DNA from: Nitrospiraceae bacterium
GTDB lineage: Bacteria > Nitrospirota > Thermodesulfovibrionia > Thermodesulfovibrionales > UBA6898
Length of the DNA stretch: 64,000 nucleotides
Direction of reading: 5' to 3'
NCBI GenBank assembly: GCA_020347665.1
Contig: CP070737.1
Location: forward strand, 1,190,055-1,254,054
A program made the position numbers and the translations under genes. The notes beneath the pieces were generated by a model. The model saw nothing but the letters and a program-made list of their open reading frames with translations, ran no database searches and was not told the origin of the DNA. Below are positions 2 through 58,861 of the stretch, one piece after another (positions within the stretch are counted from its first letter, which is position 1; every line of letters begins with the position of its first letter).

Positions 2-601
2 ATGGGTGGTATTATTGCTGTAAAGCGCGGCCAAGCCCATATGGCAGGCACACACCTCCTGGATGAAGAAACAGGAGAATATAATCTGCCGTTCATTAAG
101 AGAATGCTGACGGGAATGAATATAATGGTCATGAATTTTGTGTGCAGGCAGCAGGGACTTATCGTACAGAAAGGCAACCCCAAAAGAATACAGCATGCTC
201 AGGATTTAACACGAGACAATATCGTTTTTATAAACAGACAGCGGGGAGCTGGCACCCGATTGCTGACCGACAGTTGCCTGAAAAAGCATGATATCTCGTC
301 CGAAGATATCAACGGATACGAGAGGGAAGAATACACTCATATGGGAGTTGCTTCAGCCGTGCTTTCCGGCGTTGCAGATGCCGGGATGGGAATTCTGGCT
401 GCGGCACGGGCTCTTGATCTCGATTTTATCCCGGTAGCGCGTGAACGCTATGATCTTGTCATTGTTAAGGACTATCTGGATACTGAAGCGATACGTGCAC
501 TGCTCGGCGTGATCACCGGGGAGGACGAATTGAGAGTAATGGTAAAGAACCTCGGTGGCTATGATATTCCGGATATGGGAAAGATTTTATATGAATCATA
601 A
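2..601 (+). CDS. 3' part of a gene (5' end outside window) encoding a PBP-like solute-binding domain of the kind fused to MoeA-type molybdopterin molybdotransferases or ModE-like regulators
   Basis: Frame is open to the window edge. Motifs NRQRGAGTR, GYEREEYTHMGVA, ADAGMGI and LDFIPV..ERYDLVI are recalled from that domain family. No search run. Confidence 0.55.
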   Translation: MGGIIAVKRGQAHMAGTHLLDEETGEYNLPFIKRMLTGMNIMVMNFVCRQQGLIVQKGNPKRIQHAQDLTRDNIVFINRQRGAGTRLLTDSCLKKHDISSEDINGYEREEYTHMGVASAVLSGVADAGMGILAAARALDLDFIPVARERYDLVIVKDYLDTEAIRALLGVITGEDELRVMVKNLGGYDIPDMGKILYES

Positions 602-2087
602 GTCACTGGTATTTTCCCTTCAGGTGAAATTAATGTCTCCATCAACTGATGACAAGGATGGAGATGCGGACAGGCTCAGGAATGGTCTTAAAGAAATCGG
701 AATCCATAATGTAGAGATCCCTCTTCATATTTTGAGAAGACTGCCAGATGCCCTTCGCGAAAGTAGTTTTGAAGTCAAGCCAATATTAGGCGCGCAGGGT
801 CAAGGCTATAGACTTATAGATATGAAAAAAAAGTCATTATATGGTATTGCCCTGGATATCGGAACAACAAATATGTCATGTTCACTGTTTGACCTTGATG
901 CATGCAAAAAGGTTGATACATATGACATCGAAAACCCCCAGCTCTGCTATGGAACAGATATCCTTGCACGGGTACAGAGATCCATGATCGAAGATTCTGG
1001 CGGCTTGACAGACAGTCTTATCGAAGGAATTAATGTTTTGATAAACACGATCTGTGAAAGAAACAGCATGGGGTCTGATGAGGTATGCTGCCTGGTAGTT
1101 TCCGGTAATACTATAATGTCCCATTATTTTCTTGGGCTTGATGTAAGGAATATACCTGTTACACCGTTTATCCCTTCCATAAACGGTCCTGTTTTCACGA
1201 GCGCAGGGGAGACAGGAATAAAGATTTATAAGGAAGCGTCTGTATATGTTTTCCCAAATTCAGGAAGCTATGTGGGAGGTGACATCATCAGCGGCATTCT
1301 CTGCTCTGGAATACAGAAAGAGGAAGAACCGGCACTATTTATTGATGTGGGTACAAATGTAGAGCTGGTTCTGGGATGCCGGGATTGGATTGTAGTCGGT
1401 GCAGGGGCTGCCGGCCCCGCACTTGAGGACGGGGTTGCAGGAATCGGCAAAAAGGCTGAAAAAGGGAGCATCTTTGGGATTACGATATACCGGGACACGA
1501 AAACAGCCGCCCTCAGGGTAATCGGGGATGCGGAACCGGAAGGGATTTGCGGGTCCGGTATGATCGACCTGGTCGCTGAACTATTTTCTGCAGGGATCAT
1601 TGATCAGGCAGGGAAGTTCGTGGATTCTGGAGGAGGGATAAAAGAAAATAACGGAGAAAAGGTTTATATGCTCTCTGAAACTCGGGGCAAAGAGCTGGTT
1701 ATCTCAGAAAAGGAAGTTCAGAATTTTCTCCGCTCTAAGGCAGCCATGTTTGCCTTTCTGTATGTATTCGTGAAAGCAGTTGGCATGAGATTGAGAGAGA
1801 TAAAAAAGGTGTTTGTCGGAGGATCAATGGGCTGCGGTATTAACCTTGAAAATGCGATAAAGATAGGGATGCTTCCAGACCTGCCGAGGGAACGGTTTAT
1901 ACCGGTGGGTAATTCGTCGCTTTGTGGTGCTGAAATGGTATTGTGTAACCGTAATGTGCTGGACGAAATTGAAAATATACGATCAAAAATCACATATCGT
2001 GAAATGGGTGAAGACCCTGAACTTCTTAATGTGTTACAGGCAGGACTTTTTATCCCTCATACGGAACCTGAAATTTTGAGGGGATGA
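555..2087 (+). CDS. ASKHA-fold ATPase of the DUF4445 / RACo C-terminal-domain family (corrinoid-activase-like), without the N-terminal 2Fe-2S ferredoxin domain
   Basis: Motifs GIALDIGTTN, VSGNT, FIDVGTNVELV and GICGSGMIDLV. No Cys cluster in the first ~100 aa. The true start is more likely ATG 591 or ATG 633, because 555 overlaps the upstream gene by 47 nt. Confidence 0.6.
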   Translation: MAMIFRIWERFYMNHKSLVFSLQVKLMSPSTDDKDGDADRLRNGLKEIGIHNVEIPLHILRRLPDALRESSFEVKPILGAQGQGYRLIDMKKKSLYGIALDIGTTNMSCSLFDLDACKKVDTYDIENPQLCYGTDILARVQRSMIEDSGGLTDSLIEGINVLINTICERNSMGSDEVCCLVVSGNTIMSHYFLGLDVRNIPVTPFIPSINGPVFTSAGETGIKIYKEASVYVFPNSGSYVGGDIISGILCSGIQKEEEPALFIDVGTNVELVLGCRDWIVVGAGAAGPALEDGVAGIGKKAEKGSIFGITIYRDTKTAALRVIGDAEPEGICGSGMIDLVAELFSAGIIDQAGKFVDSGGGIKENNGEKVYMLSETRGKELVISEKEVQNFLRSKAAMFAFLYVFVKAVGMRLREIKKVFVGGSMGCGINLENAIKIGMLPDLPRERFIPVGNSSLCGAEMVLCNRNVLDEIENIRSKITYREMGEDPELLNVLQAGLFIPHTEPEILRG

Positions 2088-2095
2088 GATATGTT

Positions 2096-2125
2096 TTCCG
2101 ATGTTCGGAAACAGCTTTTGTTTTG
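2096..2125 (+). terminator. weak Rho-independent terminator candidate after the ASKHA gene
   Basis: Hairpin TTCCGA-tgt-TCGGAA (2096-2110) followed by a T-rich run cagcTTTTgTTTTg. Confidence 0.35.
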
Positions 2126-2206
2126 TGAGGAAAAGTCCTTCATAATATATTCATAATTATGCATTAGCATAAATTCGAGAAAATTATCTCACCGAGAGAT
2201 TTATTT

Positions 2207-2662
2207 ATGGGAAAGAAAGATAAAAATAAAAAGGGAAAGCAAGCAAAGAAAAACACCGGCACGGTTATCTGGATCATTGGTGCAATTGCCATATTCGCTG
2301 TTATCGTGCTGGTAACAGGGAACTTCCCGTTTGGCGGGGTGGACGAACAGAAAGGCAGGTCATTCTCTGTGCAGGGAGGAGAAACGCGTCCAACACTTTC
2401 ACCGTCATTGTTCACGGGGAAGACCATGGCGGCATATGCCATTGCCAAGAAATACCCGGAAATACTTGACCAGGTATATTGTTATTGCTACTGTGACGAC
2501 CCTCCTTTTCATCATAAGAGTCTTTTGAGCTGTTTTGTTGATCGGCACGCTGCTGCTTGAAACCTCTGACAGGACGAAGCCCTAGCGGTCGCTAGGCTCA
2601 TTAAGCAGGGGAAGAAAATCAACGAAATTAAATCTGTAATAGACAGGGAATTCGGCCGGTAA
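2207..2662 (+). CDS. membrane-anchored CYCxC / PCYCGC-motif family protein, candidate selenoprotein with two in-frame UGA (Sec) codons at 2558-2560 and 2567-2569 (U-N-L-U); conceptual product 151 aa
   Basis: The ORF track stops at TGA 2558. The same frame continues N-L-TGA and then 31 sense codons (QDEALAVARLIKQGKKINEIKSVIDREFGR) to TAA 2660-2662. N-terminal K-rich segment plus one TM helix, then YCYCYCDDPPFHHKSLLSCF..RH. The two TGAs fall where I recall the family CxxC. A SECIS-like hairpin lies at 2578-2598. Confidence 0.65.
2578..2598 (+). promoter_or_regulatory. bacterial SECIS-like stem-loop inside the extended ORF
   Basis: AG(C-bulge)CCTAGC-GGTC-GCTAGGCT: 6 contiguous bp plus 2 bp beyond a single 5' bulge, with an apical GGUC loop. 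The core stem begins 11 nt after the second TGA. No T-tract follows. Confidence 0.55.
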
Positions 2663-6539: not shown

Positions 6540-7563
6540 AATTCAGCTTGCCCTTTAAGGCTTCTGTAGTATATATGGTTCCGTTATTGTCTATAATAAC
6601 AGCTTCCATATTCATTTTTTTTATAAGATCCATTCCTTTCTCTGGACCAAGTACGAATACGGCAGTTGAAAATGCATCGGCGAAAACTCCTTTATCTGCA
6701 ATAATACTGACACTGCGACATGTCGTGGCGGGGAATCCCGTTCCCGGATTCAGGAGATGATGGTACCGCACGCCGTCCTGGATAAAAAATCTTTCATAAT
6801 CGCCTGAAGTAGATATTGCCTTGTCAGTCAATTGCATCTTTGCTATGATTTCATCGGATCGATTTTTTTGTCTCGGATTTCTTATTCCGATATTCCAGGG
6901 TTTCCCACCGGGTTTTGAACCGAAAGCTCTGATATCACCGGCTATTGCCACAAGACCGGATGATATGCCATTCTTTTTCAGGACATCAACTGCTATGTCA
7001 GTTGCATACCCTTTGGCAATACCACCGAGATCCAACAACATATTTTTCTCCTTAAGCATAACCACGTCCCTGTCTTTATCGATACTGACATGCCTGTAAT
7101 TAACCAAAGGCAGCCGACTTTTGATGTCCTCCGGGCGTGGTTTCACTGGATTGTGAAAATTCCACAGTTGCATAAGGGGTCCAATTGTTGGATCAAATGC
7201 CCCACTTGATGCATCAGCTACGAACACAGCCTTATCAATAATATCAAGTGTTTCAGTGGAGACGGAAACGCCTTCTGTTCCAGCACTCCTGTTTATCATC
7301 GCAAGTTCACTTTTATCTGAGTAGAAATTAATACGGTTTCCAAATGATTCGATGGCAGCAAAAGCCTGTTCAATCGCTTCCCGACTGCTTTGTTCAGATT
7401 CAGAGACAACCGTCATGCTCACATAGGTATCCATCATCGCCCTGCTTTTCTTGTATAGGGCTGGTCTGCTATCGATGCAGGCACCGGGAAAAACGGAATA
7501 GAAAGCTAAACATATAAACACGGTCAAAGTTTTCTTTCCGGACACTTTGGAAATAACACTCAT
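6523..7563 (-). CDS. apbE: FAD:protein FMN transferase (ApbE family), lipoprotein-type signal
   Basis: MDTYVSMTV, FDPTIGPL, LDLGGIAKGYA, STSGDYERF and HHLLNPGTG motifs. Signal peptide ending FPGAC. Confidence 0.85.
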   Translation of the reverse strand: MSVISKVSGKKTLTVFICLAFYSVFPGACIDSRPALYKKSRAMMDTYVSMTVVSESEQSSREAIEQAFAAIESFGNRINFYSDKSELAMINRSAGTEGVSVSTETLDIIDKAVFVADASSGAFDPTIGPLMQLWNFHNPVKPRPEDIKSRLPLVNYRHVSIDKDRDVVMLKEKNMLLDLGGIAKGYATDIAVDVLKKNGISSGLVAIAGDIRAFGSKPGGKPWNIGIRNPRQKNRSDEIIAKMQLTDKAISTSGDYERFFIQDGVRYHHLLNPGTGFPATTCRSVSIIADKGVFADAFSTAVFVLGPEKGMDLIKKMNMEAVIIDNNGTIYTTEALKGKLNFEKID

Positions 7564-11583: not shown

Positions 11584-13956
11584 TTAAGACCCCTGATAAC
11601 CTGCAGCTCTGAGTGAAAGATACGCCAGTACATACAGTATCACGCCGGTAAACATCAAGAGTTTGAATCCTGCGGTTATGGCAAACATGATTGCAGCTAT
11701 CGGTGCAACCACTGAAAAGCATCCATTTACTGCCCACGCCCATGGAATGAGTTCCGGCCTTTTCCCTCCTATTAGTGAAAGCCCCAGAGGGAACGGTATG
11801 CCCATACCTATGCCTGCAGGCAGAAGAATAATGAAAACGAGCATAATCTTTATTATTAATGTGTAGGGAACCATGAACGATATAATGTCTGAAATGAATA
11901 TGCTGTATACAAGAATCGTAAGAGCCAGTACGAGTAGCATTTTGGCATTTCTGAATATGGGAAGAAACTGGCTCAATAGGCTCCCGATGCCCGAACTGAT
12001 CAGCATCGACGCGAGAACTGCCGAAGTGGCGTGCGACGGATTCACCAGGGGAAGAATCATTTTCTGGATAAACGAAATTTCGATGAACATAAATGCTAAA
12101 CCAAGAAACGCAAAATAAGACAGGGATAAAAAAAGCCTGGGGTGTTTCACAGGTGTCCGAATGGACATAAACGTAACGGATGGAAGCAGTATCAGGACCA
12201 TGCCCAGAAACACAACTTGTATCAATATAAGGGGCAAGAGATAGCCCTCTTCAAGAAAATACTGCCATTTCCCCCCCATCAGGGGATAAATTTTATGAAT
12301 ATTCCTGATTTTTAGAAAGTAATGAAAAAATGGATTGTCATCATGGACAGGTTCAATGTCGAATACATAATCCTTAATAAAATGTTTTTGTGTTGTCTTA
12401 TTTAAGAGGAGTTTAAATGAGTCAGCATACTCCCTGGTTGGCATTTTGATATATACATTGGTTTCGCTATCTGTAATGCCGGGGTAGTAGACAAGATCAA
12501 ATCGCTTATCACGTGCAAAATCCCTGATGACCATGATGTCTTTCCGGGATAATGCGGATTTCTTGGCAATTATGGTAATGGTGCCCCAGCTCCGAATGGC
12601 GGCGATATTATTTCCGATATCCTGAATATTCTGATTTTCAAAGGCCTTTGATATCGTATTAAGCAAACGCAATTCACTCCTTGGTGGCGGCAGAATAAAA
12701 AGATTTATGGCCAAAAAACCATCTGGCTTGAGATATGTGGCATATTCTTCAAAAGCCTCAACCGTGAAGCGATAATCCTCTGAAAACCCGAAAGACGACG
12801 ATGGCACTGATCCCATTATGGATATGTCAATCAGATCAAATGTCTTTCCGATTGAACGCAGCACGCTTCTGCCAAGTCCCTTCCAGACATGCTGGTCATA
12901 GACAGTGGTTGAAAAGCCTTCTGAAAAGTTTCTGATGGCCTTGACAATGGAAGGGTTTGATTCAACCGTGTAGATGTTCGACATACGATAATAATCCGCT
13001 GTGAGTGCGGAAAGGCCGCCTTTTGGGTCGAGGATCAGCACGTCAGTTTTGCGGGATAGTCTGTATGGTAACGCTGATGGCAGATATTCGATAAAACGGA
13101 GCTCTGTTCTACTGGTATCCTCTGTTATGGCGGATATATGACCGGCATCTTCCGTAATACCTGTTTGTTCAGGAAGGTTTTCAAGATATCTAAAACTGAG
13201 GCCGGGGGCAAATCTTACAGCAGGGCTGTTAAAAAGGTCTATACGTGAAAAAGGGCTGTGATAGGTCTTGAGGTGTTCAGCACCTGGATAATGCAGGGCA
13301 GTTTCAAGTGGTTTATAAGGTGAAATTCTCATATGGAGAAACGATGGATACAGAAATAGTGCAGCCAAATTTAAGAAGAGGAGGAGGGCGCATGCCAGCC
13401 ATATTCCTTTATTCCTGAACAGAAGTATGGGAATGATCAGAAGGCTTGAAAGGATAAAGACGATTTTGTCGGGACCGCTGATGCTGAGAAATGCAAGAAT
13501 CATGATTGAACCAATCCCGGCACCAGCAAGGTCTGCTCCGTAGATATATCCAATATATTTTCGTAGTGTTGAAAAGGCGGAAGCAACGATTAAACCGAAG
13601 GAAAAGAACGGTACTGCCAGAACAATATAATAAAGGCTGATATAGAACAGCTGAACCCTGTCCCACATAAATCTGGCCGGCTCAAAGGGGATCACGTTAA
13701 GAGCAAGATAGCTCGCGGGTATGCTCACAGAGAGCATGAGAGAATATAATGGTATATACTCCCATTTCTTTATGGCAGGGAATATCAAAAGCAGAGTGCC
13801 GCTCGCTGTGATACCGAGCATGGAAATGCTTATGACCATGAAGGCAAAGTGATACGAAAGCGCGACAGAAAAAATTCTAATAAGCGTTATTTCATAAGCA
13901 AGGCTTACAAGCGATGCCACAAAAACTGCAATGAGTATCAGAATGTGATCCTTCAT
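11584..13956 (-). CDS. large polytopic membrane protein with a central spermidine-synthase-like (class I methyltransferase fold) domain
   Basis: ~7 N-terminal and ~6 C-terminal TM helices flank VLILDPKGGLSALTADYY...YTVESNP...FDLIDISI. Confidence 0.5.
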   Translation of the reverse strand: MKDHILILIAVFVASLVSLAYEITLIRIFSVALSYHFAFMVISISMLGITASGTLLLIFPAIKKWEYIPLYSLMLSVSIPASYLALNVIPFEPARFMWDRVQLFYISLYYIVLAVPFFSFGLIVASAFSTLRKYIGYIYGADLAGAGIGSIMILAFLSISGPDKIVFILSSLLIIPILLFRNKGIWLACALLLFLNLAALFLYPSFLHMRISPYKPLETALHYPGAEHLKTYHSPFSRIDLFNSPAVRFAPGLSFRYLENLPEQTGITEDAGHISAITEDTSRTELRFIEYLPSALPYRLSRKTDVLILDPKGGLSALTADYYRMSNIYTVESNPSIVKAIRNFSEGFSTTVYDQHVWKGLGRSVLRSIGKTFDLIDISIMGSVPSSSFGFSEDYRFTVEAFEEYATYLKPDGFLAINLFILPPPRSELRLLNTISKAFENQNIQDIGNNIAAIRSWGTITIIAKKSALSRKDIMVIRDFARDKRFDLVYYPGITDSETNVYIKMPTREYADSFKLLLNKTTQKHFIKDYVFDIEPVHDDNPFFHYFLKIRNIHKIYPLMGGKWQYFLEEGYLLPLILIQVVFLGMVLILLPSVTFMSIRTPVKHPRLFLSLSYFAFLGLAFMFIEISFIQKMILPLVNPSHATSAVLASMLISSGIGSLLSQFLPIFRNAKMLLVLALTILVYSIFISDIISFMVPYTLIIKIMLVFIILLPAGIGMGIPFPLGLSLIGGKRPELIPWAWAVNGCFSVVAPIAAIMFAITAGFKLLMFTGVILYVLAYLSLRAAGYQGS

Positions 13957-15631: not shown

Positions 15632-16876
15632 ATGACCTCCTTCAGTGAGAAAATGCAGAGACATCTTTTGCTTACTGTTTTTTCCATTCTTGTAACATTC
15701 TGCACGCCAGCGATAGTGCTTTCAGAAGATGATTCAAGCAATCACAGTTTATTCACAACAATCATGGAAGAACTCAAACGTGGTGAAGTCAATGGAACCG
15801 TAGGCTTATATTATGAACTTACTGATTACGAACAGAGCACTTTTGTTGAAGAAGAAGAGGTCATGCAGCTTGATGACAGCCGTCTGCTCATTCCTTATTT
15901 CCAGATAGAATACCAGTCGCGAGTTTATAAGCGGTTCAGTCTGGGAATCGGTTTCACGGGGTATGTTCATATTATCAAAGATGTAGAAGAAGAGGATGCA
16001 TTCAGGGATTTTGAGAGATTTCTTACGCATAAATTGTTTCTACAGTATGACATATCAAAAACAACTCTCAGGCTCGGGAGAATAGAACTGGAAGACAGTC
16101 TTTTCCTGACCGATTATTACAAGGCCCTGAGTCTTTCTTTGCGGGAAATTGAGAATATTGGTTTTTTGTTTGCGTATATAGAAGAAGTTGCAGAAGCGGA
16201 TATTGACAAACTGACGGATTTTCAGGATATCAACAGGGGCGATACGTCTATCGACGATCATCTTGTAGCAATGGAAATACCCGTGGATATTATACCGGAA
16301 TCATTTTCTGCTACTCTGTATTACTATCACCAGGGCAACCTGTACGACCTCTATGGTAAACATGTGGAGTTTTCGCACAATTTCAATGAGGTAACTCTTG
16401 GTCTCTATGTTGATTACTACGCCACTCATGAAGACAGCAAAAACGGCATGAGAAACATACAAGATGAAGTAGAAGATACTGATATTTATCATATTAGTCC
16501 GTTTGTGGAATATGAAAATTTCGCTTTAACAGCGGGATACATCCAGGCAGACCGTAACGTCGGTGCACGTGAAGGTGGTCTGATAGACGATTATTTTAAT
16601 CCCTTTAATGAAGGTGACAGAGTGTATGAACCTGACGCTAAAACCGTGTATGGCTCTGTAGAATATCATACTGATCATATTATTGTGGAGATAGTGTATG
16701 GAGAGACAACATTTCGTGATGATCTCCTGCGCTTAAAAGAGCGAGAACTTGATTTAAATGGAAGCCTTGAATTCTGGAAAAATGTGAAGCTGGAAACCGA
16801 ATTTGCCATTGTGAATAGTGAAAGCCCTGAAGGTGATTTTGTTCTTCTGGAAACAGCATTGACATATGAATTCTAA
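15632..16876 (+). CDS. outer-membrane beta-barrel porin (OprD/Opr-like)
   Basis: Signal peptide, alternating beta-strand pattern and a C-terminal ...ALTYEF aromatic terminus. Confidence 0.55.
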   Translation: MTSFSEKMQRHLLLTVFSILVTFCTPAIVLSEDDSSNHSLFTTIMEELKRGEVNGTVGLYYELTDYEQSTFVEEEEVMQLDDSRLLIPYFQIEYQSRVYKRFSLGIGFTGYVHIIKDVEEEDAFRDFERFLTHKLFLQYDISKTTLRLGRIELEDSLFLTDYYKALSLSLREIENIGFLFAYIEEVAEADIDKLTDFQDINRGDTSIDDHLVAMEIPVDIIPESFSATLYYYHQGNLYDLYGKHVEFSHNFNEVTLGLYVDYYATHEDSKNGMRNIQDEVEDTDIYHISPFVEYENFALTAGYIQADRNVGAREGGLIDDYFNPFNEGDRVYEPDAKTVYGSVEYHTDHIIVEIVYGETTFRDDLLRLKERELDLNGSLEFWKNVKLETEFAIVNSESPEGDFVLLETALTYEF

Positions 16877-43856: not shown

Positions 43857-45914
43857 ATGAAAAAAAAATTAATGGTGAACAGTATTATCGTGCTGGTCCT
43901 GATAGTCATGTTTGTTCTTGTATTCATTACCGCGTGCACGGACCGTGATGTTGAACAACAAACTGTTTCAAAGCCACGTGGTGCTCTGGTTACAGGATTA
44001 CAATATCCAGTAAAGGAAGTGATTGTCGGGCACGATTCTACAAGGCCGCGTGGTGCACCAGAAGGGGTATCTAACACGGCAGGCCAGGACCTTTCTCCTG
44101 TGGTAAATGGATTTAAGTCCCCGGCATATCGGGCAGATGAACACGGGAAGGAATACAAGCAATGGGCAGGGACGATCATGGCAAACGCCATGCGTGATCC
44201 AGCATTCTTTGCCACCCTATCGGTTGCCAACCAAGACATGATAAAGCTTATTAACAATGTTTATAACAGACCGGAAAATATCAAAAAAATCTTTACCGGT
44301 GATGCCAAAGACTTTAACAACGTTGCACAGCTCTTAGAACTTCTCAAACTTGATAAAGAAAATATCAAGAAAAAGGGGAAAAAACTTCAGCCAGAGAATA
44401 TTCTCCCTGTAACTGCCGATCTCTGTTTGCGTTGCCACTCGCCGGTAGGCTGGATGGAAGGCCGTTCTGAGCCGAAGACAAAAGTCTTCCCGTTTCTGAA
44501 AGGGCAGTTCTGGGGAGCAGCATTTCTCGAAAATCCCTTTGACAATGACGGAAATCCGCGTTCTGTTAACTTAACCAAGGAATCCGAGACAGGGATGGAA
44601 GGAATTCAGTGCGACTTCTGCCACAGGATTCAGGATACGTTTAAGAGAAAATCTCTTTATGACGGAAGCGAAATCTCGAACGGAATCGGCGGTTTTTTCG
44701 TTGATCGCCATAATCCGTTCTGCGAAGATACCTATGATGAAAACGGAGATTGTAGAGAGGGAAAATATACAACATCGAGCGTTTTTCAGAAGGAAGGCAC
44801 TTTCTGCGGTACCTGCCATGACGTTACAAACCCACTTATCAGGACGAGAACGGTGGTCAACGGCAAAATTCCGGAAGATATGCCGCACCCCATCGAGAGA
44901 ACCTATACCGAGTGGTACTGGAGTGATTACCGGCAAAAGAGGACGTGCCAGGACTGTCACAATCCAATGTCGTTTCCGGGCGCACAGACCTGGATGATTT
45001 CCCCAGTGCTCGAAGAACTCTGGGGCGACGTGGATGAAAAGTGGCGCGCGGAACCCTATAATTATGATACACCGGACCGTACCTCCCTTTGGAAGGAAGC
45101 AATGGAACGGAACAGGAAATACATGCAGAGAGAAGCCGCTGAAATGTCTTTTATCAATACATCTGTTCAAGGTAATACTATTAACCTTGAAGTTAAGATA
45201 ATAAACAAATGCGGACATAAGCTTCCAACCGGTTTTGCTGAAGGCAGACAGATGTGGTTACACATCACAGCAACAGACGATGCAGGCAAGGTAATCTTTG
45301 AGAGCGGTTATTTGGACGATGGGTATCTCATCCGGGACAAATACAGGGAAAATGGGAAAATTGTGGATGACCCCGATAAGAATATGATCAAGGTCTATGA
45401 AATGGAAGCCATAGCCGACGGGTATGATGAATCAGTTATAACAAAAGAGAATGAGCATTTCCATTTTATCCTCATGAACAAAATAGTAAAAGACAATCGG
45501 ATCCCACCTAAAGGTTTCAACAAGGAAGCATATACTGCTGACGGTGCCTTCATTATTCCGCATGATCCCAAGGATACTGACTATGCTGACGGGCAGTACT
45601 GGGATGTAACACCTTATACCTTTACGGTTCCAGAAGGGGAAATTAGTAAGATCTCTGTTACCGCTACTCTGAACTATCAGACCTTTAGCAGGGAGTATAT
45701 CGATTTTTTGAAGAACAACGATGTTGAGCTTACTGAGGAATGCGGTGGCCGGGCCAGGAATCTCCCGATTATCGGGTCATATGATGGTACCGATTGCGAT
45801 AACTACGGTACCTGGGGATTAACGCTATATGACCTTTGGGAGAAAGCCAATATGGGCCCGCCTGTAATAGTGCAAGAGTCATCAATCGAAATCCCGCTCG
45901 ATAGAAATAAATAA
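43857..45914 (+). CDS. tetrahaem c-type cytochrome lipoprotein of an uncharacterised family
   Basis: Lipobox ITAC (Cys27). CxxCH at C190, C252, C317 and C364. Family-like motifs MANAMRDPAFFA, CLRCHSPVGWMEGRS and NKCGHKLPTGFAEGRQMWL. Confidence 0.75.
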   Translation: MKKKLMVNSIIVLVLIVMFVLVFITACTDRDVEQQTVSKPRGALVTGLQYPVKEVIVGHDSTRPRGAPEGVSNTAGQDLSPVVNGFKSPAYRADEHGKEYKQWAGTIMANAMRDPAFFATLSVANQDMIKLINNVYNRPENIKKIFTGDAKDFNNVAQLLELLKLDKENIKKKGKKLQPENILPVTADLCLRCHSPVGWMEGRSEPKTKVFPFLKGQFWGAAFLENPFDNDGNPRSVNLTKESETGMEGIQCDFCHRIQDTFKRKSLYDGSEISNGIGGFFVDRHNPFCEDTYDENGDCREGKYTTSSVFQKEGTFCGTCHDVTNPLIRTRTVVNGKIPEDMPHPIERTYTEWYWSDYRQKRTCQDCHNPMSFPGAQTWMISPVLEELWGDVDEKWRAEPYNYDTPDRTSLWKEAMERNRKYMQREAAEMSFINTSVQGNTINLEVKIINKCGHKLPTGFAEGRQMWLHITATDDAGKVIFESGYLDDGYLIRDKYRENGKIVDDPDKNMIKVYEMEAIADGYDESVITKENEHFHFILMNKIVKDNRIPPKGFNKEAYTADGAFIIPHDPKDTDYADGQYWDVTPYTFTVPEGEISKISVTATLNYQTFSREYIDFLKNNDVELTEECGGRARNLPIIGSYDGTDCDNYGTWGLTLYDLWEKANMGPPVIVQESSIEIPLDRNK

Positions 45915-52442: not shown

Positions 52443-54956
52443 TTGGTGGAGTTGATATCTTTGACAGTAGATACCGTTATTAAGAATGATGTAATAAATG
52501 AAATGGGCATACTCCTGGAACAGGGGTACGGAGGCATATTCCTTGTTGAAAGATATGCAAAAAAGATAGACGCCTTTATTCAGCGCATGGCATCTTCCTT
52601 TGAAGAAGACCTCCCCTTCGTTATTATTGCAACGGGAGGATATGGGCGCGCTGAACTCGCGCCTTTCTCAGATATTGATATTATGCTTCTGGCAGAAGAC
52701 CGTGCTCATTCTGAAGCGGCTGAACAGCTGCTCTATAAACTCTGGGATACCGGGCTCACGATCAGCCATTCATTCAGAACGCCAGAAGAATGCATCGAGG
52801 AGGCTTTCCTTGATATAAAGACCCGCACATCCCTGCTTGAATCACGGTATATTGCAGGTGATAAGAGATTATACCGGAGCTTCAGGAATAACGTATATCC
52901 TGAAATTGCCTATAAGCGTCGCAAGGGTTATGTCAGGGAAAAACTCAGAGAAATGCAGGGACGACATCGGGACTCAGGGGATTCTGTATTTCTTCTTGAG
53001 CCGAATATAAAGGAGGGTGAAGGAAGCCTGCGAGATATTCATACTGCGTACTGGTTGTCCAAAATTGCCCTGAAGATAGAGGATGTGCGAGGGCTTTCAC
53101 AGTTGATCAACACATACGATTTCAGAAGACTCATGAGCGCTTATGATTTTCTGCTGCGAGCTCGATGTAGTCTTCATCTCATATCGAAGAGAAAAAATGA
53201 TTTGCTGTCTTTCGAATATCAAAGAAATGTTGCAACGATGCTTGATTTCAAGGATTCAAAGAAGTTCACGGCCACGGAACGATTTATGAGATATTATTAC
53301 CTTAAAAGCAAAGTGATACATGATGTCACTCGTAGCATCATGACTGCCTGCAGCCGGCCTTATATTTCCCCGTGGAAAGACATGAAAATCAGGAAGATAT
53401 CTTCTGATTTCTCCGTGTCAGGCGGCAGATTGATTGCAAATCAGGAAAACCTTTTCGCGAAACATCCGACAAAAATCATTGAAAGCTTTTATATGTATTC
53501 AAAAACGGGAAAACGCTTTAGTGAAAAGACGAAAGATATTATCAAAGCTAATCTGCTGCGAATCAGCAGAACAACGAGGTCCGATTCAGTTGCGACAGAT
53601 CATTTTCTAAGAATAATGAAGGGGAATCGTGTCTATGAAACTTTAAAAGAAATGCATGATGCCGGTATACTGGGGAGGTTTATCCCGGAGTTCGGAGCAC
53701 TGCGGATGCTGGTTGTTCATGAACCATATCATAGATACACGGTTGATGAGCATACGCTTCAGGCCATAAGAAATCTTGAAGCATTAAAAATGACACCATT
53801 GAAAAGCCTGGAGTACCTGAAAACTATTGCCAGGGGATTGAAACATTTTGACGTATTGCTGTTGGCCCTCTTATTTCATGATATTGGAAAGGCTGTTGGA
53901 AGGCATCATGAGGAGGAAGGATATAAACGGCTGAAAAATATCATGGACCGCTTTAACCTGGAGAAAAGGAAAAGAACACGAGTTGAATTTCTTGTTAAGA
54001 ATCATATTCTTATGTCGAAAATAGCGATGAAACGGGAGGCAAGTGACCCCAATGTTATTGCTCATTTTGCCGGTATCGTAACCGATATGGAAAATCTGCA
54101 GGCGCTCTATCTTATTACCCATGCGGACATGTCGGCTGTGAATGAAACATTTCTGAACTCCTGGAAGAAAAATCTGTTGAAGGATTTATATGAACGGACG
54201 GCAAAGTATCTTCTGGGAATAACGGAAGACAGAGAGCAGTATATCCGGAACCTGCATGACTCATTGCCCTCGACCGATGCACTGAGTATTTCTGATTTTA
54301 TAAGAGATATGCCAGAGAGGTATTTTGTTTCTGCGACGAAAGAGCAGGTATTAAAGGATTATCAGCTTACTGAAAAGATGAAAGAAACCGGTTTCATGAT
54401 GCGGATAGACAGCGTTAATGAGGGATTGACTGATATCACAGTTAGCACGAGAGACCTGCCAGGTCTTTTTTCCATGATTGTCGGATATCTCTCTTCGAAA
54501 GGACTGCATATTGTTACCGGCAGAGTATTTACGGGAAAGAGCGGTGCGATTATTGACCGGATATCTGTTTCTAACTGGAACGATGTGTGGTGGGCCGGTC
54601 AGGAAAAGGAAATTGAAGAAGGGCTGCGTAGAATTATTTTTGAACAGCATCCTGTTACGGTAGTGAGACGTGCGGCCGCTCCTGAAAGCATATTCGATAT
54701 TTTCATTGAACTTGATAACGAAGCTTCGGAAGAATACAGTATTATTGAGATTTTCAGCACGGATAGGCTCGGTCTGCTGTATGACATATCCACGGTCATA
54801 TCAAAATCAGGCGTTAATATCATATCTGCTATCATTAATACAGAGTCTAATTATGCGCAGGACGTGTTCTATGTCCAGACAGGAGCGGGGGAAAAAGTGG
54901 GCACTGTTATCGCGCAGACTCTATTGGCTGAACTATGGAACGTCCTAAAGGATTAA
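52443..54956 (+). CDS. glnD: [protein-PII] uridylyltransferase / uridylyl-removing enzyme
   Basis: GGYGRAELAPFSDIDIMLL nucleotidyltransferase motif, HD domain (LLFHDIGK) and two C-terminal ACT-like segments. TTG start in the track is uncertain. Confidence 0.85.
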   Translation: MVELISLTVDTVIKNDVINEMGILLEQGYGGIFLVERYAKKIDAFIQRMASSFEEDLPFVIIATGGYGRAELAPFSDIDIMLLAEDRAHSEAAEQLLYKLWDTGLTISHSFRTPEECIEEAFLDIKTRTSLLESRYIAGDKRLYRSFRNNVYPEIAYKRRKGYVREKLREMQGRHRDSGDSVFLLEPNIKEGEGSLRDIHTAYWLSKIALKIEDVRGLSQLINTYDFRRLMSAYDFLLRARCSLHLISKRKNDLLSFEYQRNVATMLDFKDSKKFTATERFMRYYYLKSKVIHDVTRSIMTACSRPYISPWKDMKIRKISSDFSVSGGRLIANQENLFAKHPTKIIESFYMYSKTGKRFSEKTKDIIKANLLRISRTTRSDSVATDHFLRIMKGNRVYETLKEMHDAGILGRFIPEFGALRMLVVHEPYHRYTVDEHTLQAIRNLEALKMTPLKSLEYLKTIARGLKHFDVLLLALLFHDIGKAVGRHHEEEGYKRLKNIMDRFNLEKRKRTRVEFLVKNHILMSKIAMKREASDPNVIAHFAGIVTDMENLQALYLITHADMSAVNETFLNSWKKNLLKDLYERTAKYLLGITEDREQYIRNLHDSLPSTDALSISDFIRDMPERYFVSATKEQVLKDYQLTEKMKETGFMMRIDSVNEGLTDITVSTRDLPGLFSMIVGYLSSKGLHIVTGRVFTGKSGAIIDRISVSNWNDVWWAGQEKEIEEGLRRIIFEQHPVTVVRRAAAPESIFDIFIELDNEASEEYSIIEIFSTDRLGLLYDISTVISKSGVNIISAIINTESNYAQDVFYVQTGAGEKVGTVIAQTLLAELWNVLKD

Positions 54957-57900
54957 GAAAACTCTTTCTGCTTCTTCTGCCGGCAGTTCTTCTGCTGTCT
55001 GTAATTATTTTTGTGAGAAGCGCATATATATCGGATAGCCTCAATAAAATCATAATACCCCCGATGGAGGCCGTTACAGGAAAACAGATTGTTGCCGAGA
55101 GAATCGTTTTAAATATTTTTCCCCTGTTTATTGAGGCACGGGATCTTACAGTTTTGAACGAGAATCGAAAACAGATACTTTTTATACAGCGCGCAAAGGC
55201 GTATGTCAACATATTGAGTCTGTTAGAAAGAAAGATAGCTATTCGCAGACTGGTCATAAAGAATCCTGAAGCAATGGCGGATAAAGAACAGGTGAATGAA
55301 ATAATTGGTCATATAAACACGTATGGAACCGGGAACGAAGACAAGGGATTTGCGCCTTCAATCGATGTCATTGAGGTACGTGAGGGAAGACTGCATTATT
55401 CTGACCGTGACGCTGAAGGCGAATACACCGTATCAGGCATTCATGGTGAGATAATTATCAGTGATGCTTATGCAATCAAAGTAAATGCGCAAGAGATCAA
55501 CATTGCGAAGAAAGGCTGGCCTGACCTGCTCTTCGACATAAGCGCTGATATTTCAGGTAAAAAGGATTCGTTTGAAGTTAAACGGTTTTTGCTCAATACG
55601 TTTGGCTCACAGATTCGCGGATCAGGCACTTATCGCGACGGATCCGGTACGTTCAAGACAGACATAAACCTCCTGGTCTCAACGGTCAAACGACTCTTTC
55701 AACTTGATGAGAGTGAATATGGACAGGTAAATGCCAGTGGATCTATGACCTATACTGGCAAGAACGTCCTGCTTGATCTTGAACTGGAAAGTTCATTTTA
55801 TCTGCAGACATTAATGGAATTGCTCGAAGTTGAGGAGCGGACCGAAGGTTTGGTAAGAACAAAGGGGCGGATTCAGGGGCCACTCACAAGGATTACCGGG
55901 AATGGGACAGCAACGCTTGAAAACGGCAACCTTTTTGATGTCGATATAGATTCTCTTGCCTGCACTGTTGACTATGATGAAACGGCGTTAAGATTTACCA
56001 GCTGTCTGGCACGTCTCTATCAGGGCTCTGCAGAAGTATCAGCATCCTTACGTATGCCGGAAGTTGAATCATTCGCCCTTGCGATAGCTTTTCAGGAGGT
56101 CAATAGTGATCCACTGTTCGGGTTGATTGATCTTGATCTCGGTCTGCGGAATGGAAAGGTCTCTGGCACCGTGTACAGCAGAGGAGAGGAGTTTAATCCC
56201 TCCGGGCAGTTTACGTATGTACATGGGGCGGAGGATGCCGATGTTATGGGAAGAATAGAGCGGCTTTCGGGAACCTATGCGCTGGATGGCTTTCTGTTAT
56301 CCCTGGATGATATCATGTTCAGCTCAGGGCTGTCCGATCTGACAGTAGAAGGCCGTGTGGATATTGACAGCGAAACCATTGATCTCGAAGGAAGTTTAGT
56401 CACGAAAGATGTTGGAGATCTGAGTTCACCGTATTATAGATCTCTTCGCGGCGAAGGAAAATTTGACGGCTTCATAACAGGGACTTTTGATGATCCGCTC
56501 ATTCACGGAAGTCTCAGGATTAAGGAACCCGCTCTTGGAGCATATGACGCAGACCATGTTGTTGCTGATATTTCTTACCGTAAAAAAGAGCTTTCCATAC
56601 ATGAACTTATTGTAAATGATAACGAACGAAGTCATTCCCTGAAGGGGAATATATATTTCAGGGATGCAGAGGAATTATTTGATCTGGGAAAACCGACGTT
56701 TGAAATACAGGTAAGACTCGATCATGCTGATTGCGGGAAATTCCTTAATTCATTATATCCGGGATTTTTGTGTTCCGGAGAGCTTATATCAGGTTTCCAG
56801 GTTTATGGTCCTCTTGATAATCCACTCATCAGCGGAAAAGCTACTGTTGAGAAAGCGTCACTGTATTCTTTTCCCGTTGATTCTGCGGCTGTTGTTTTCA
56901 GATATTCTGATCAGACATTGCATATGAAAACAATATCAATTACCCGGGGGATGTCCATGCTTTCCGGGGCAGCCACTATTGATGATAGCGGTACCTTTTC
57001 ATATAGGGCTCATTCGGACGGGATGATGCTTAGTCATCTTGTTGACAGAACGATTCAGGGCGATATTCTTTTTTCTCTGCATTCTGAGGGTCATGGAACG
57101 ATTGATAATCCGGTTGTATCAACAGCTATTACAGTTATCAGGGGATCGCTCAATGAAAAACCGGTTGGGAAAGGAAATGCGCAGCTGAAGATTGAGGGTA
57201 AATCCTTCTCATTACGGGGAGCATTGTTTGACGAAAGATTGAAGCTCGATGCTACTGGCAGAATCGATGACGCAATGCCATGGAATGCAAAGATTAATAT
57301 TCTTCCGGGCAGGTATGACTTCCTGGCATCAACTTTATTGAAGGAAATTCCTGAAGATCTCATATTAAGTCTGAAAGGAGATCTGCAGCTCAGCGGGAAC
57401 AGGGATCATATATCCGGAGAAGCATTGTTAACGAATATCGTGCTTTCCATGTATGGACACAGTTTTTCAAGCGAGGATACAATAGAGCTTCGCATTGATA
57501 ACAAAAAACTTGATCTGGGAACCATTGCCTTACGCAGTGGAAATACGTTTATCAGAGTTACAGGGGATCTTTTGATTGGAGAAAACTATAATCTCGTTTT
57601 GGAAGGAAATTCAGCGCTTGCCCCTTTCAAAAGTCTCTCAGACAAAATCGATTCATTAAAGGGAGATGCTGAGTATGTTTTTTCGATTGTCGGTGAATGG
57701 ACATCTCCCCGTATAAACGGTGGATTAACCGTATCGAATGGCACGTTCGGACTGAAAGACTATTATCGCAGAATCAGTTCTCTCGAAGGATTTCTTTACG
57801 TAGATGAAGACAGGGTCGTCCTTAAGGAACTGTCCGGAAAAGTGGGTGGGGGAACAGTGGATATATCGGGAATCCTTTACCTCAGAGAATTTACAGTGAG

Positions 57901-58861
57901 GCGGTTTTTTGTTGAAATGAACCTGGATAAAATAGCTGTGTCGATGTCGGATAAATTTAACGTGAATTTTGATGGCGATATACTTTATAAAGGAACTGTT
58001 GAAGAGCAGATAGTATCAGGTGACATAACGATAAATCGGATTATTTATAAGGAAAGAATTGATTGGAAAAGCTGGCTTCTGGAGGCACAAAAGACCGATA
58101 AGATTAAAACCGATATTTCGGATTTTGAAAAAGCAGAACTAAATGTGGCAGTTCATGGAGACGACAGTATATTGATTGATAATAATATTGCTCGAGCAAC
58201 AGTGAGTGCGGACCTGGTGCTGAAAGGAAGACTGTATCGACCGACTCTTCTGGGAAGGATTGAGGCGAGTGAAGGCACTGTCTATTTCAGAAACAACAAC
58301 TTCAGAATTATCCGTGCAAGCGCCGATTTTGCCGATCCTGTTCGGATCAATCCTATTATGGATATTGCCTCAGAAGCAATGATAAGCGGTTACAGGATCA
58401 AGATGAATCTGGAAGGTCAGGCTGATCAGTTTGATCTTGTTTTGTCGTCGGATCCCCCTCTAAAAGAGCTGGATATACTGGCTCTTCTTACTACAGGAAA
58501 GACCGGGGAGGAACTAGAAGGACTCGAGGTTGTTGTCGGGGCAGGTGAAGCAACCTCGTTTGTTACCGGTAAAATTCAGGATGTGCTAGAAGAGCGGTTA
58601 AGTACCCTTACAGGACTTGACAGACTGCACGTTGATCCCTATGTTTCGAAAGAAACAGGCGCCATAGAGCCGAGGGTTACGGTCGGGAAAAGACTTCTTG
58701 GAGAAAAAGTATTTGTGACGTATACCACAACTCTTGGTTCAGCGGTTGAGCAGATGATAAGGCTCGAATATTTACTAAGTAAGAATATTACGTTATTGGG
58801 TGTCACAGATGAAAGAGGTGGTATCGGAGGAGACATACGTTTGAGGTTCGGATTTAAGTGA
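54935..58861 (+). CDS. tamB: translocation and assembly module protein TamB (AsmA-like, C-terminal DUF490)
   Basis: N-terminal signal anchor, a 1300-aa beta-rich body and a characteristic tail ..VTYTTTLG....IRLEYLLSKNITL.G..DERG..GGDIRLRFGF. Confidence 0.75.
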   Translation: MERPKGLRKLFLLLLPAVLLLSVIIFVRSAYISDSLNKIIIPPMEAVTGKQIVAERIVLNIFPLFIEARDLTVLNENRKQILFIQRAKAYVNILSLLERKIAIRRLVIKNPEAMADKEQVNEIIGHINTYGTGNEDKGFAPSIDVIEVREGRLHYSDRDAEGEYTVSGIHGEIIISDAYAIKVNAQEINIAKKGWPDLLFDISADISGKKDSFEVKRFLLNTFGSQIRGSGTYRDGSGTFKTDINLLVSTVKRLFQLDESEYGQVNASGSMTYTGKNVLLDLELESSFYLQTLMELLEVEERTEGLVRTKGRIQGPLTRITGNGTATLENGNLFDVDIDSLACTVDYDETALRFTSCLARLYQGSAEVSASLRMPEVESFALAIAFQEVNSDPLFGLIDLDLGLRNGKVSGTVYSRGEEFNPSGQFTYVHGAEDADVMGRIERLSGTYALDGFLLSLDDIMFSSGLSDLTVEGRVDIDSETIDLEGSLVTKDVGDLSSPYYRSLRGEGKFDGFITGTFDDPLIHGSLRIKEPALGAYDADHVVADISYRKKELSIHELIVNDNERSHSLKGNIYFRDAEELFDLGKPTFEIQVRLDHADCGKFLNSLYPGFLCSGELISGFQVYGPLDNPLISGKATVEKASLYSFPVDSAAVVFRYSDQTLHMKTISITRGMSMLSGAATIDDSGTFSYRAHSDGMMLSHLVDRTIQGDILFSLHSEGHGTIDNPVVSTAITVIRGSLNEKPVGKGNAQLKIEGKSFSLRGALFDERLKLDATGRIDDAMPWNAKINILPGRYDFLASTLLKEIPEDLILSLKGDLQLSGNRDHISGEALLTNIVLSMYGHSFSSEDTIELRIDNKKLDLGTIALRSGNTFIRVTGDLLIGENYNLVLEGNSALAPFKSLSDKIDSLKGDAEYVFSIVGEWTSPRINGGLTVSNGTFGLKDYYRRISSLEGFLYVDEDRVVLKELSGKVGGGTVDISGILYLREFTVRRFFVEMNLDKIAVSMSDKFNVNFDGDILYKGTVEEQIVSGDITINRIIYKERIDWKSWLLEAQKTDKIKTDISDFEKAELNVAVHGDDSILIDNNIARATVSADLVLKGRLYRPTLLGRIEASEGTVYFRNNNFRIIRASADFADPVRINPIMDIASEAMISGYRIKMNLEGQADQFDLVLSSDPPLKELDILALLTTGKTGEELEGLEVVVGAGEATSFVTGKIQDVLEERLSTLTGLDRLHVDPYVSKETGAIEPRVTVGKRLLGEKVFVTYTTTLGSAVEQMIRLEYLLSKNITLLGVTDERGGIGGDIRLRFGFK

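Follow-up and report, generated by a model that had tools for sequence, protein, structure and literature searches.

The OS_HP4/CYCXC family is a predicted prokaryotic selenoprotein family that is listed with the motif UxxC and one selenocysteine (Sec, or U) (PMC13188914, PMC9312934). Pairs of Sec residues in a UxxU motif have been predicted elsewhere in bacteria: in a Prx-like thiol:disulfide oxidoreductase (PF00578), in the MerA-related, metal-binding “putative mercuric reductase” protein NF041115, in the FmdB family (TIGR02605), and in the large subunits of Group 4 [NiFeSe] hydrogenases, where a single downstream selenocysteine insertion sequence (SECIS) has been proposed to serve both UGA codons (PMC13582414). 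Here we describe a CYCXC gene with two in-frame TGA codons, located on a 64,000-nt stretch of contig CP070737.1 (GCA_020347665.1), which belongs to a Nitrospiraceae bacterium metagenome-assembled genome (MAG). The whole of this stretch is called the window, and coordinates are counted within it. The gene probably encodes a CYCXC selenoprotein of 151 residues, in which both UGAs would be recoded as Sec by way of a single in-frame hairpin.

Since the published listing gives a UxxC motif with a single Sec, the first TGA of this gene was already known, and the second is the new part. An earlier, sequence-only reading of the locus had proposed a selenocysteine pair without a characterized bacterial precedent. 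Both TGAs of that pair are supported by the results below, but the first Sec position had already been curated (UxxC) and only the second is new; the novelty of the motif itself was overstated, since bacterial UxxU had been predicted in the Prx-like, NF041115, FmdB, and Group 4 hydrogenase proteins. In the literature searched there was no mention of a UxxU form of CYCXC, and no report was found of SECIS repositioning accompanying the gain of a second Sec.

A CYCXC gene with two in-frame TGA codons

The reading frame has the following parts.

2207..2662, + strand: full recoded coding sequence (CDS), 151 codons including two in-frame TGAs, then TAA
2558..2560, + strand: first in-frame TGA (residue 118), where the family is known to carry Sec; about 100 relatives have TGA here and about 63 have Cys
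2567..2569, + strand: second in-frame TGA, residue 121; Cys (TGT or TGC) in all relatives outside the UxxU clade
2570..2659, + strand: conserved C-terminal tail, 30 codons, translated only with both TGAs recoded

The open reading frame (ORF) called from the ATG at 2207 has 117 codons and ends RHAAA, followed by TGA 2558-2560. In the same frame come AAC CTC, TGA 2567-2569, 30 sense codons (QDEALAVARLIKQGKKINEIKSVIDREFGR), and TAA 2660-2662; re-reading the ATG, both TGAs, the open tail, and the TAA bore out the double-TGA layout first proposed for 2207-2662. The GenBank record (UCE78086.1, JSV13_06055, hypothetical protein) holds the first 117 codons only, and the mechanical ORF list likewise stops the called ORF at 2560. 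If both codons are recoded, UCE78086.1 and the records of its relatives are 34 residues too short and lose two ligand or redox residues and two helices.

TGA reassignments exist in a few bacterial lineages, and reassignment of TGA to a sense codon in this host (to Gly or Trp, for example) would be one alternative to recoding. TGA is, however, the terminator of 12 of the 37 long ORFs in the window, including the neighboring gene for a protein like the reductive activator of corrinoid proteins (RACo), and at the positions of both TGAs of the CYCXC gene the family has invariant Cys rather than Gly or Trp. The earlier reading had taken TGA to be an ordinary stop here, and the three stops that it cited, at 2085-2087 (the RACo gene stop), 7560-7562 (minus strand), and 58859-58861, were verified. 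No use of a reassigned code is known from Nitrospirota, and we give this alternative virtually no credence.

Family searches were made with the 151-residue product after replacement of U by C. The NCBIfam equivalog NF041379 (“OS_HP4_CYCXC, CYCXC family (seleno)protein”) matched with 125.8 bits (cutoff 90), residues 60-149 falling on profile positions 1-89 of 90, and Pfam PF13798 (PCYCGC) matched at 36 bits against a cutoff of 25. This full-length match spans the CxxC and upholds the assignment to the PCYCGC/CYCxC family that had been made from the sequence. Full-length Cys-form homologs carry the pattern H-A-x-x-C-x-x-C-x-[DNQ]-[EQ]-A, and both window TGAs land on its invariant CxxC, positions 118 and 121 corresponding to C112 and C115 of the Cys homolog P0071. 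The tail (..EA...A..L...GK.I..I+..ID..F) aligns with Cys forms residue by residue. As had been anticipated, homologs have Cys or TGA at both positions, and none stop at the first TGA. The motif found here differs from the listed UxxC with one Sec in that the first position is U and the second is also TGA (UxxU); judged from these alignments, the second TGA is a departure from the listed motif and not from homology.

Codons at both motif positions were scored in about 165 loci, comprising 80 loci from GTDB species representatives, 80 metagenomic loci taken from more than 569 matches, and the loci of the closest protein clusters. UxxC was present in about 92 loci and CxxC in about 63; an insertion variant, U-x-x-x-C, was present in 5, and CxxU in none. 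UxxU was confined to one small group, the clade of the window gene, with six distinct proteins: P0001 (the window protein), P0222 (L001, a Thermodesulfovibrionales MAG), P0224 (L183), P0221 (L180-182), P0002 (L161), and P0003 (L162-165). Compared over the 117 residues of the called ORF, their identity to the window's own protein ranged from 82 to 100%. The two residues between the U positions vary among them (NL, DL, or AL), and the tail is intact in all six. A neighbor-joining tree in which both motif positions were masked placed the UxxU sequences in one monophyletic group, nested in a 50-leaf clade that was otherwise wholly UxxC; this topology indicates a single UxxC-to-UxxU origin as one derived event.

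The insertion variant reads HAAT-U-V-N-F-C-QNEA and occurs in five metagenomic loci, L133, L138, L142, L143 (first TGA at 1858), and L148 (first TGA at 963). In these genes the hairpin has moved by those 3 nt as well.

The window comes from a MAG, in which a single-base error could make TGA from TGT or TGC at one or both positions. Sequencing or assembly error is effectively ruled out because six independent Logan assemblies, made from different runs, contain the 456-nt window gene without a single difference, both TGAs included; moreover, five further diverged relatives from other samples or genomes have TGA at both positions. The alignment with CxxC, the six identical assemblies, and the five further distinct relatives together put the double-TGA pattern, as read from these sequences, beyond chance. 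The earlier argument that two TGAs would not fall by accident on exactly the CxxC pair has thus gained weight, both TGAs and the conserved tail being kept in those five relatives.

A different alternative is that translation ends early. UGA2 could be a true stop, giving a product of 120 residues ending U-N-L, or the gene could end at the first TGA (117 residues) and be followed by a decaying remnant. The GenBank annotation ends at the first TGA, UGA recoding is inefficient, and truncated products will surely arise too. However, in six of six pairwise comparisons within the UxxU clade, the 30 codons that follow TGA2 had a ratio of nonsynonymous to synonymous substitution rates (dN/dS) of 0.10-0.50 at dS of 0.2-0.9 (the core domain had 0.03-0.20), while the sequence 3' of the TAA diverges freely within the clade. 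The window tail keeps the E, A, G, I, and D that hardly vary in the family, and no frameshift or stop interrupts it across the six distinct UxxU sequences. Homologs do not end at this position in family alignments, and in the AlphaFold model of P0071 the tail-equivalent segment forms two helices at a predicted local distance difference test score (pLDDT) of >90. Because the tail is under purifying selection, keeps its family residues, and corresponds to confidently modeled helices in the homolog, the comparison argues strongly against decay and against the idea that translation mostly ends at either TGA; early termination seems very improbable. A decayed 3' end had been named at the outset as a way in which the Sec pair could fail, and the tail proved to be conserved; in the sequences examined, none of the other refuting conditions listed there came up either.

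Three candidates were rejected: a pseudogene on the strength of selection on the tail, sequencing error on the six identical assemblies, and code reassignment on the TGA stops in the window.

A SECIS-like hairpin downstream of both UGAs

The RNA features are as follows.

2578..2598, + strand: SECIS-like hairpin AGCC-C-UAGC [GGUC] GCUA-GGCU, loop at 2587-2590, -9.3 kcal/mol
2564..2568, + strand: tentative lower stem, 5' arm CUCUG, overlapping the x-x codons and UGA2 and pairing with 2606-2610
2606..2610, + strand: tentative lower stem, 3' arm CAGGG, pairing with 2564-2568

The bacterial SECIS consensus has a loop of 3-9 nt, a stem of 4-16 bp, a G in the first two loop positions, a UGA-to-loop distance of 16-37 nt, and a minimum free energy of -7.5 kcal/mol or lower (PMC13188914). 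A per-sequence hairpin scan showed that a SECIS-like element, for which the sequence-only reading had suggested a search, is present 3' of both TGAs. The hairpin at 2578-2598 has 8 bp and one bulge, its loop lies 26 nt from UGA1 and 17 nt from UGA2, and it agrees with every one of the consensus rules for both UGAs. Across four sequences of the UxxU clade, 32 of 32 pair cells are paired; there are three wobble-compatible single changes and one compensatory change from A-U to G-C, made up of codon 126 CTA->CTG and codon 129 GCT->GCC, both synonymous.

Comparison with the rest of the family bears on the position of the hairpin as well as on its strength. The median hairpin energy was -9.8 kcal/mol in Sec forms versus -6.75 kcal/mol in Cys forms (Mann-Whitney p = 2e-5, not corrected for phylogeny), and the loop had a fixed place in Sec forms, where it began at offset 23 (counted from the A of UGA1) in 55 of 90, versus 8 of 48 Cys forms. 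In UxxC relatives the loop lies 22 nt from UGA1, which would leave only 13 nt between the loop and a UGA in the second position, less than the 16-nt minimum. In all UxxU sequences, and in no others, the loop is at offset 27, 4 nt further downstream. The codons at the hairpin are specific to this clade, changing from AGG GTC GCC CAG to GCG GTC GCC AGG and the peptide from R-V-A-Q to A-V-A-R. We infer that the hairpin was remodeled in a way that lets a single SECIS act on the two UGAs.

The A-V-A-R pattern (versus R-V-A-Q) and the new stem arise from the same nucleotide changes (window 2621-2662 compared with L001, L161, and L162). This looks like a protein sequence molded by the structure of its RNA.

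Within the UxxU clade the lower stem is 95% paired, with one compensatory pair. The pairing of 2564-2568 with 2606-2610 is not supported across the family, and the lower stem is kept as tentative because it holds in the UxxU clade yet not family-wide. Rfam gave no match in 2100-2900 at E values up to 10. A family-wide SECIS consensus attempted with RNAalifold yielded only 3 bp, because the hairpin register differs between clades, and was replaced by the per-sequence scan.

Protein architecture and gene neighborhoods

Upstream of the two TGAs, the protein has the following features.

2207..2257, + strand: Lys-rich N-terminus, residues 1-17, with 8 K/R and 1 D/E; predicted to be cytoplasmic by the positive-inside rule
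2258..2314, + strand: single transmembrane (TM) helix GTVIWIIGAIAIFAVIVLV, residues 18-36, mean Kyte-Doolittle hydropathy 2.8
2480..2494, + strand: CYCYC motif, C92, C94, and C96, invariant in the family
2513..2548, + strand: H103 ... C109 ... H114 (HKSLLSCFVDRH), invariant in the family

Residues 18-36 are the sole strongly hydrophobic segment of the protein, and the AlphaFold model of the homolog P0071 has a helix at the TM-equivalent position. Elsewhere in the window (54935-61530, +), a same-strand block encodes TamB (1308 aa), BamA/Omp85 (890 aa), and, after these, a SurA-like chaperone; because BamA, TamB, and SurA are encoded there, gene content confirms that the cell is diderm. Given the Lys-rich N-terminus, the TM helix, the diderm envelope, and the positive-inside rule for membrane protein orientation, the C-terminal domain should be periplasmic.

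Eight invariant residues are potential ligands or redox groups: C92, C94, C96, H103, C109, H114, U118, and U121. The four extra invariant Cys and two His, which go beyond the thioredoxin pattern, point to a metal or multi-thiol centre. The P0071 model is a confident one; it is all-helical, without strands, and has the [U/C]xxC at a helix start (C112; helix 113-127). Redox CxxC motifs typically sit at the start of a helix.

Gene neighborhoods differ between the forms of the family. Same-strand genes for RnfG, RnfE/A, RnfB, CYCXC, a TPR protein, ResB, and CcsA, arranged in this order, occur in 21 of 35 Cys-type loci. ResB and CcsA are System II cytochrome c biogenesis proteins. Among UxxC-type loci, 13 of 45 have a TlpA/ResA-like membrane thioredoxin gene adjoining CYCXC, with the motif WCPPC or W-x-T-W-U-x-x-C. 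Since these neighborhoods link the family to ResB/CcsA and to TlpA-like thioredoxins, a periplasmic thiol/selenol redox or soft-metal site working with the thiol pathway of cytochrome c maturation is a reasonable possibility, one that falls somewhat short of an even chance. In the literature searched, the only lead on PCYCGC/CYCXC function was a Parageobacillus family lipoprotein adjoining an Fe3+-binding protein. The association with ResB/CcsA biogenesis and TlpA-like (seleno)thioredoxins would be the first functional lead found for the CYCXC/PCYCGC family.

The Rnf-CYCXC-TPR-ResB-CcsA arrangement was seen in deltaproteobacterial and Nitrospirota MAGs, in L052 (L052:3-6446), L041, L066, L071, and about 17 other Cys-type loci, and in it the CYCXC gene stands between the Rnf complex genes and the System II cytochrome c biogenesis genes. 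In five UxxC-type loci, a TGA splits the TlpA/ResA-like gene (W-x-T-W-U-x-x-C) into two same-frame ORFs: L011:3512-4123(-), L018:4773-5369(-), L025:4159-4791(-), L070:1745-2395(+), and L079:2315-2962(+). These split thioredoxins are, as predicted from the same kind of motif, UxxC selenoproteins too. In L070 and L079 the thioredoxin stop overlaps the CYCXC start codon (GTGA), and this overlap suggests translational coupling of the two genes.

The gene order common to members of the UxxU clade is MoeA-PBP, RACo, CYCXC, DUF6901, and ScpB. In the window the RACo-like protein (PF17650, PF17651, PF14574) is encoded at 555-2087 (+); the gene for MoeA fused to a PBP-like domain, which precedes it, lies upstream of the window start (L169:6407-8395). 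The MoeA-PBP and RACo pair is conserved upstream of every UxxU-clade gene, and no corrinoid protein or methyltransferase is evident nearby. Consensus scans of the interval between the RACo-like and CYCXC genes gave two candidates.

2095..2111, + strand: terminator-like hairpin and T-run 3' of the RACo-like gene, separating it from the CYCXC gene; 1 found versus 0.8 expected in shuffles, and so weak evidence
2123..2151, + strand: sigma-70-like promoter candidate upstream of the CYCXC gene, TTGTGA, 17-nt spacer, TATATT; no better than the shuffle expectation

Three large ORFs of the window that were gene-called in independent assemblies have no Pfam hit on record: 11584-13956 (-), 790 aa; 15632-16876 (+), 414 aa; and 43857-45914 (+), 685 aa.

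Decoding of the two UGAs and comparison with known systems

Several observations weigh against two Sec insertions and against the role proposed for the protein. Neither selA, selB, selD, nor tRNA-Sec was found in the 64-kb window or the fetched flanks. The only tRNAs that ARAGORN identified in the window were tRNA-Val and tRNA-Asp, and no sel genes showed up in the Pfam context of the window or the flanks. When E. coli SelA, SelB, and SelD served as tblastn queries on the window and about 180 loci, the matches were confined to two Cys-type deltaproteobacterial loci. About 100 TGA-interrupted frames were examined for other selenoproteins in the window, and none had a redox motif or coding context. 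One account gives the recoding efficiency of E. coli as 30-40% per site (PMC4513850), and two successive recoding events should be costly. As to the RNA, the covariation of the hairpin is statistically weak, being drawn from four to six close sequences and reached by 106 of 500 shuffles, and it is best described as supportive, not decisive. The folding energy of the whole region was unremarkable (z of -0.3 to -0.8) and was left out of the evidence because it did not differ from shuffles. Since the second Sec and the shift of the hairpin go back to the same evolutionary event, their link is a single correlation and not a statistical result. On the side of function, the P0071 model had no relatives in the PDB by fold (best E = 3.4) or by sequence profile, and the UxxU clade's own neighbors (MoeA-PBP, RACo, DUF6901, and ScpB) give no functional support.

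With no sel genes in the window or fetched flanks, the case for Sec competence comes from relatives: the many UxxC forms in the same taxonomic order, Sec-containing TlpA-like neighbors of relatives, and a published account in which selC of Nitrospirae lies nested within selB (PMC13188914). On these grounds the genome is presumably able to make and insert Sec.

The two loci that matched in tblastn carry the selB 3' end and selD about 1.5 kb upstream of CxxC-type CYCXC genes, in two deltaproteobacterial MAGs (L061:236-1513 and L063:456-1460). Sec machinery thus adjoins a Cys form of a selenoprotein family at these loci.

Read-through could also insert Cys at one or both UGAs, by means of tRNA-ReC, a SelC*-type tRNA-Cys that SelB would deliver to a UGA with a SECIS; this would yield a mature CxxC, UxxC, or CxxU protein, or a mixture whose composition depends on selenium. 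tRNA-ReC-like genes occur in about 56% of UXXU-hydrogenase genomes versus about 2.3% of other Sec-type genomes, and where they are present one UGA or the pair may be decoded as Cys (PMC13582414). The conserved tail, the hairpin, and the spacing fit Cys decoding equally well. However, the first position is TGA in about 100 relatives over several phyla and is treated by curators as Sec. At the second position, a change from TGY to TGA that left Cys in place would bring cost only, yet it has been kept in six diverged sequences. The tRNAs of the window are those for Val and Asp only, the window being as far as tRNA-ReC was looked for. Taken together, these points make Cys decoding unlikely, with a probability that is low and still well above that of early termination.

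Recoding of both UGAs as Sec remains the explanation that we favor. SelB and Sec-tRNA(Sec) would insert Sec at UGA 2558-2560 and UGA 2567-2569, and the single in-CDS SECIS hairpin at 2578-2598, with its GGUC loop, would direct both insertions. The first Sec would be ancestral to the large UxxC clade. The second would have arisen once, by a TGY-to-TGA change in a small Thermodesulfovibrionales/Nitrospiraceae lineage, and would have come with a hairpin rebuilt 4 nt further downstream, putting UGA2 within the 16-37 nt spacing. The predicted protein would have a Lys-rich cytoplasmic N-terminus, one TM helix, and an all-helical periplasmic domain with a C-Y-C-x-C...H...C...H...[U/C]-x-x-[C/U] cluster. 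Its periplasmic centre may work with TlpA/ResA-type thioredoxins and System II cytochrome c maturation, and UxxU would give a diselenide in place of a selenylsulfide couple. That Sec and not Cys stands at both sites, that one hairpin serves both, and that the protein functions in this way are points that we infer. The proposal in its entirety, in which a repositioned hairpin and two Sec produce a periplasmic diselenide centre in a membrane-anchored protein whose fold the PDB lacks, and in which that protein cooperates with TlpA-type thioredoxins and System II maturation, is speculative and has perhaps one chance in a few of being right.

The feature is real, and its significance is moderate. 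A two-Sec form would be added to a selenoprotein family listed with one Sec, and the impact is limited because both the family and the UxxU motif type were already known from predictions and the results here come from sequence analysis. The decoding of closely spaced UGAs is an open question that was raised for the UXXU hydrogenases, and on this question the sister lineages described here offer a clean comparison, differing by TGY versus TGA at position two and by the 4-nt shift of the hairpin. The 16-37 nt spacing rule predicts why the hairpin had to move. If the proposal in its entirety is true, the locus would provide a natural bacterial diselenide redox or metal site and a natural experiment on SECIS movement upon gain of a second Sec codon.

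Among known systems, the TlpA/ResA/CcmG-type oxidoreductases share with the window protein an N-terminal anchor, a periplasmic [C/U]xxC, and a linkage to ResB/CcsA, and some TlpA-like neighbors are UxxC; they differ in having a thioredoxin fold, whereas the window protein is predicted to be all-helical and has four extra invariant Cys and two His. Eukaryotic SelL has UxxU in place of a redox CxxC, as does the window protein, and reportedly forms a diselenide. SelL is, however, a Prx-like protein of thioredoxin fold with a eukaryotic SECIS in its 3' untranslated region, whereas the window protein is predicted to be all-helical and has its SECIS inside the CDS. A thioredoxin-fold, SelL-like relationship failed on the all-helical P0071 model, the lack of Trx/Prx Pfam hits, and the lack of a PDB fold match, and there is no homology between the two proteins. 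With the bacterial UxxU selenoproteins the window gene shares two UGAs 9 nt apart in place of CxxC and a single downstream in-frame SECIS, as proposed for both; their families and folds are unrelated to CYCXC. The closest system is the CYCXC family itself (NF041379/PF13798), from which the window protein retains the CYCxC, the invariant H/C/H, the tail, the membrane anchor, and Sec at the first [U/C]xxC position, and from which it differs by TGA at the second Cys and a hairpin 4 nt further downstream. The SECIS core of Group 4b hydrogenases is reported to be the same in CXXU and UXXU forms (PMC13582414), whereas in the CYCXC UxxU clade the hairpin is repositioned relative to UxxC relatives.

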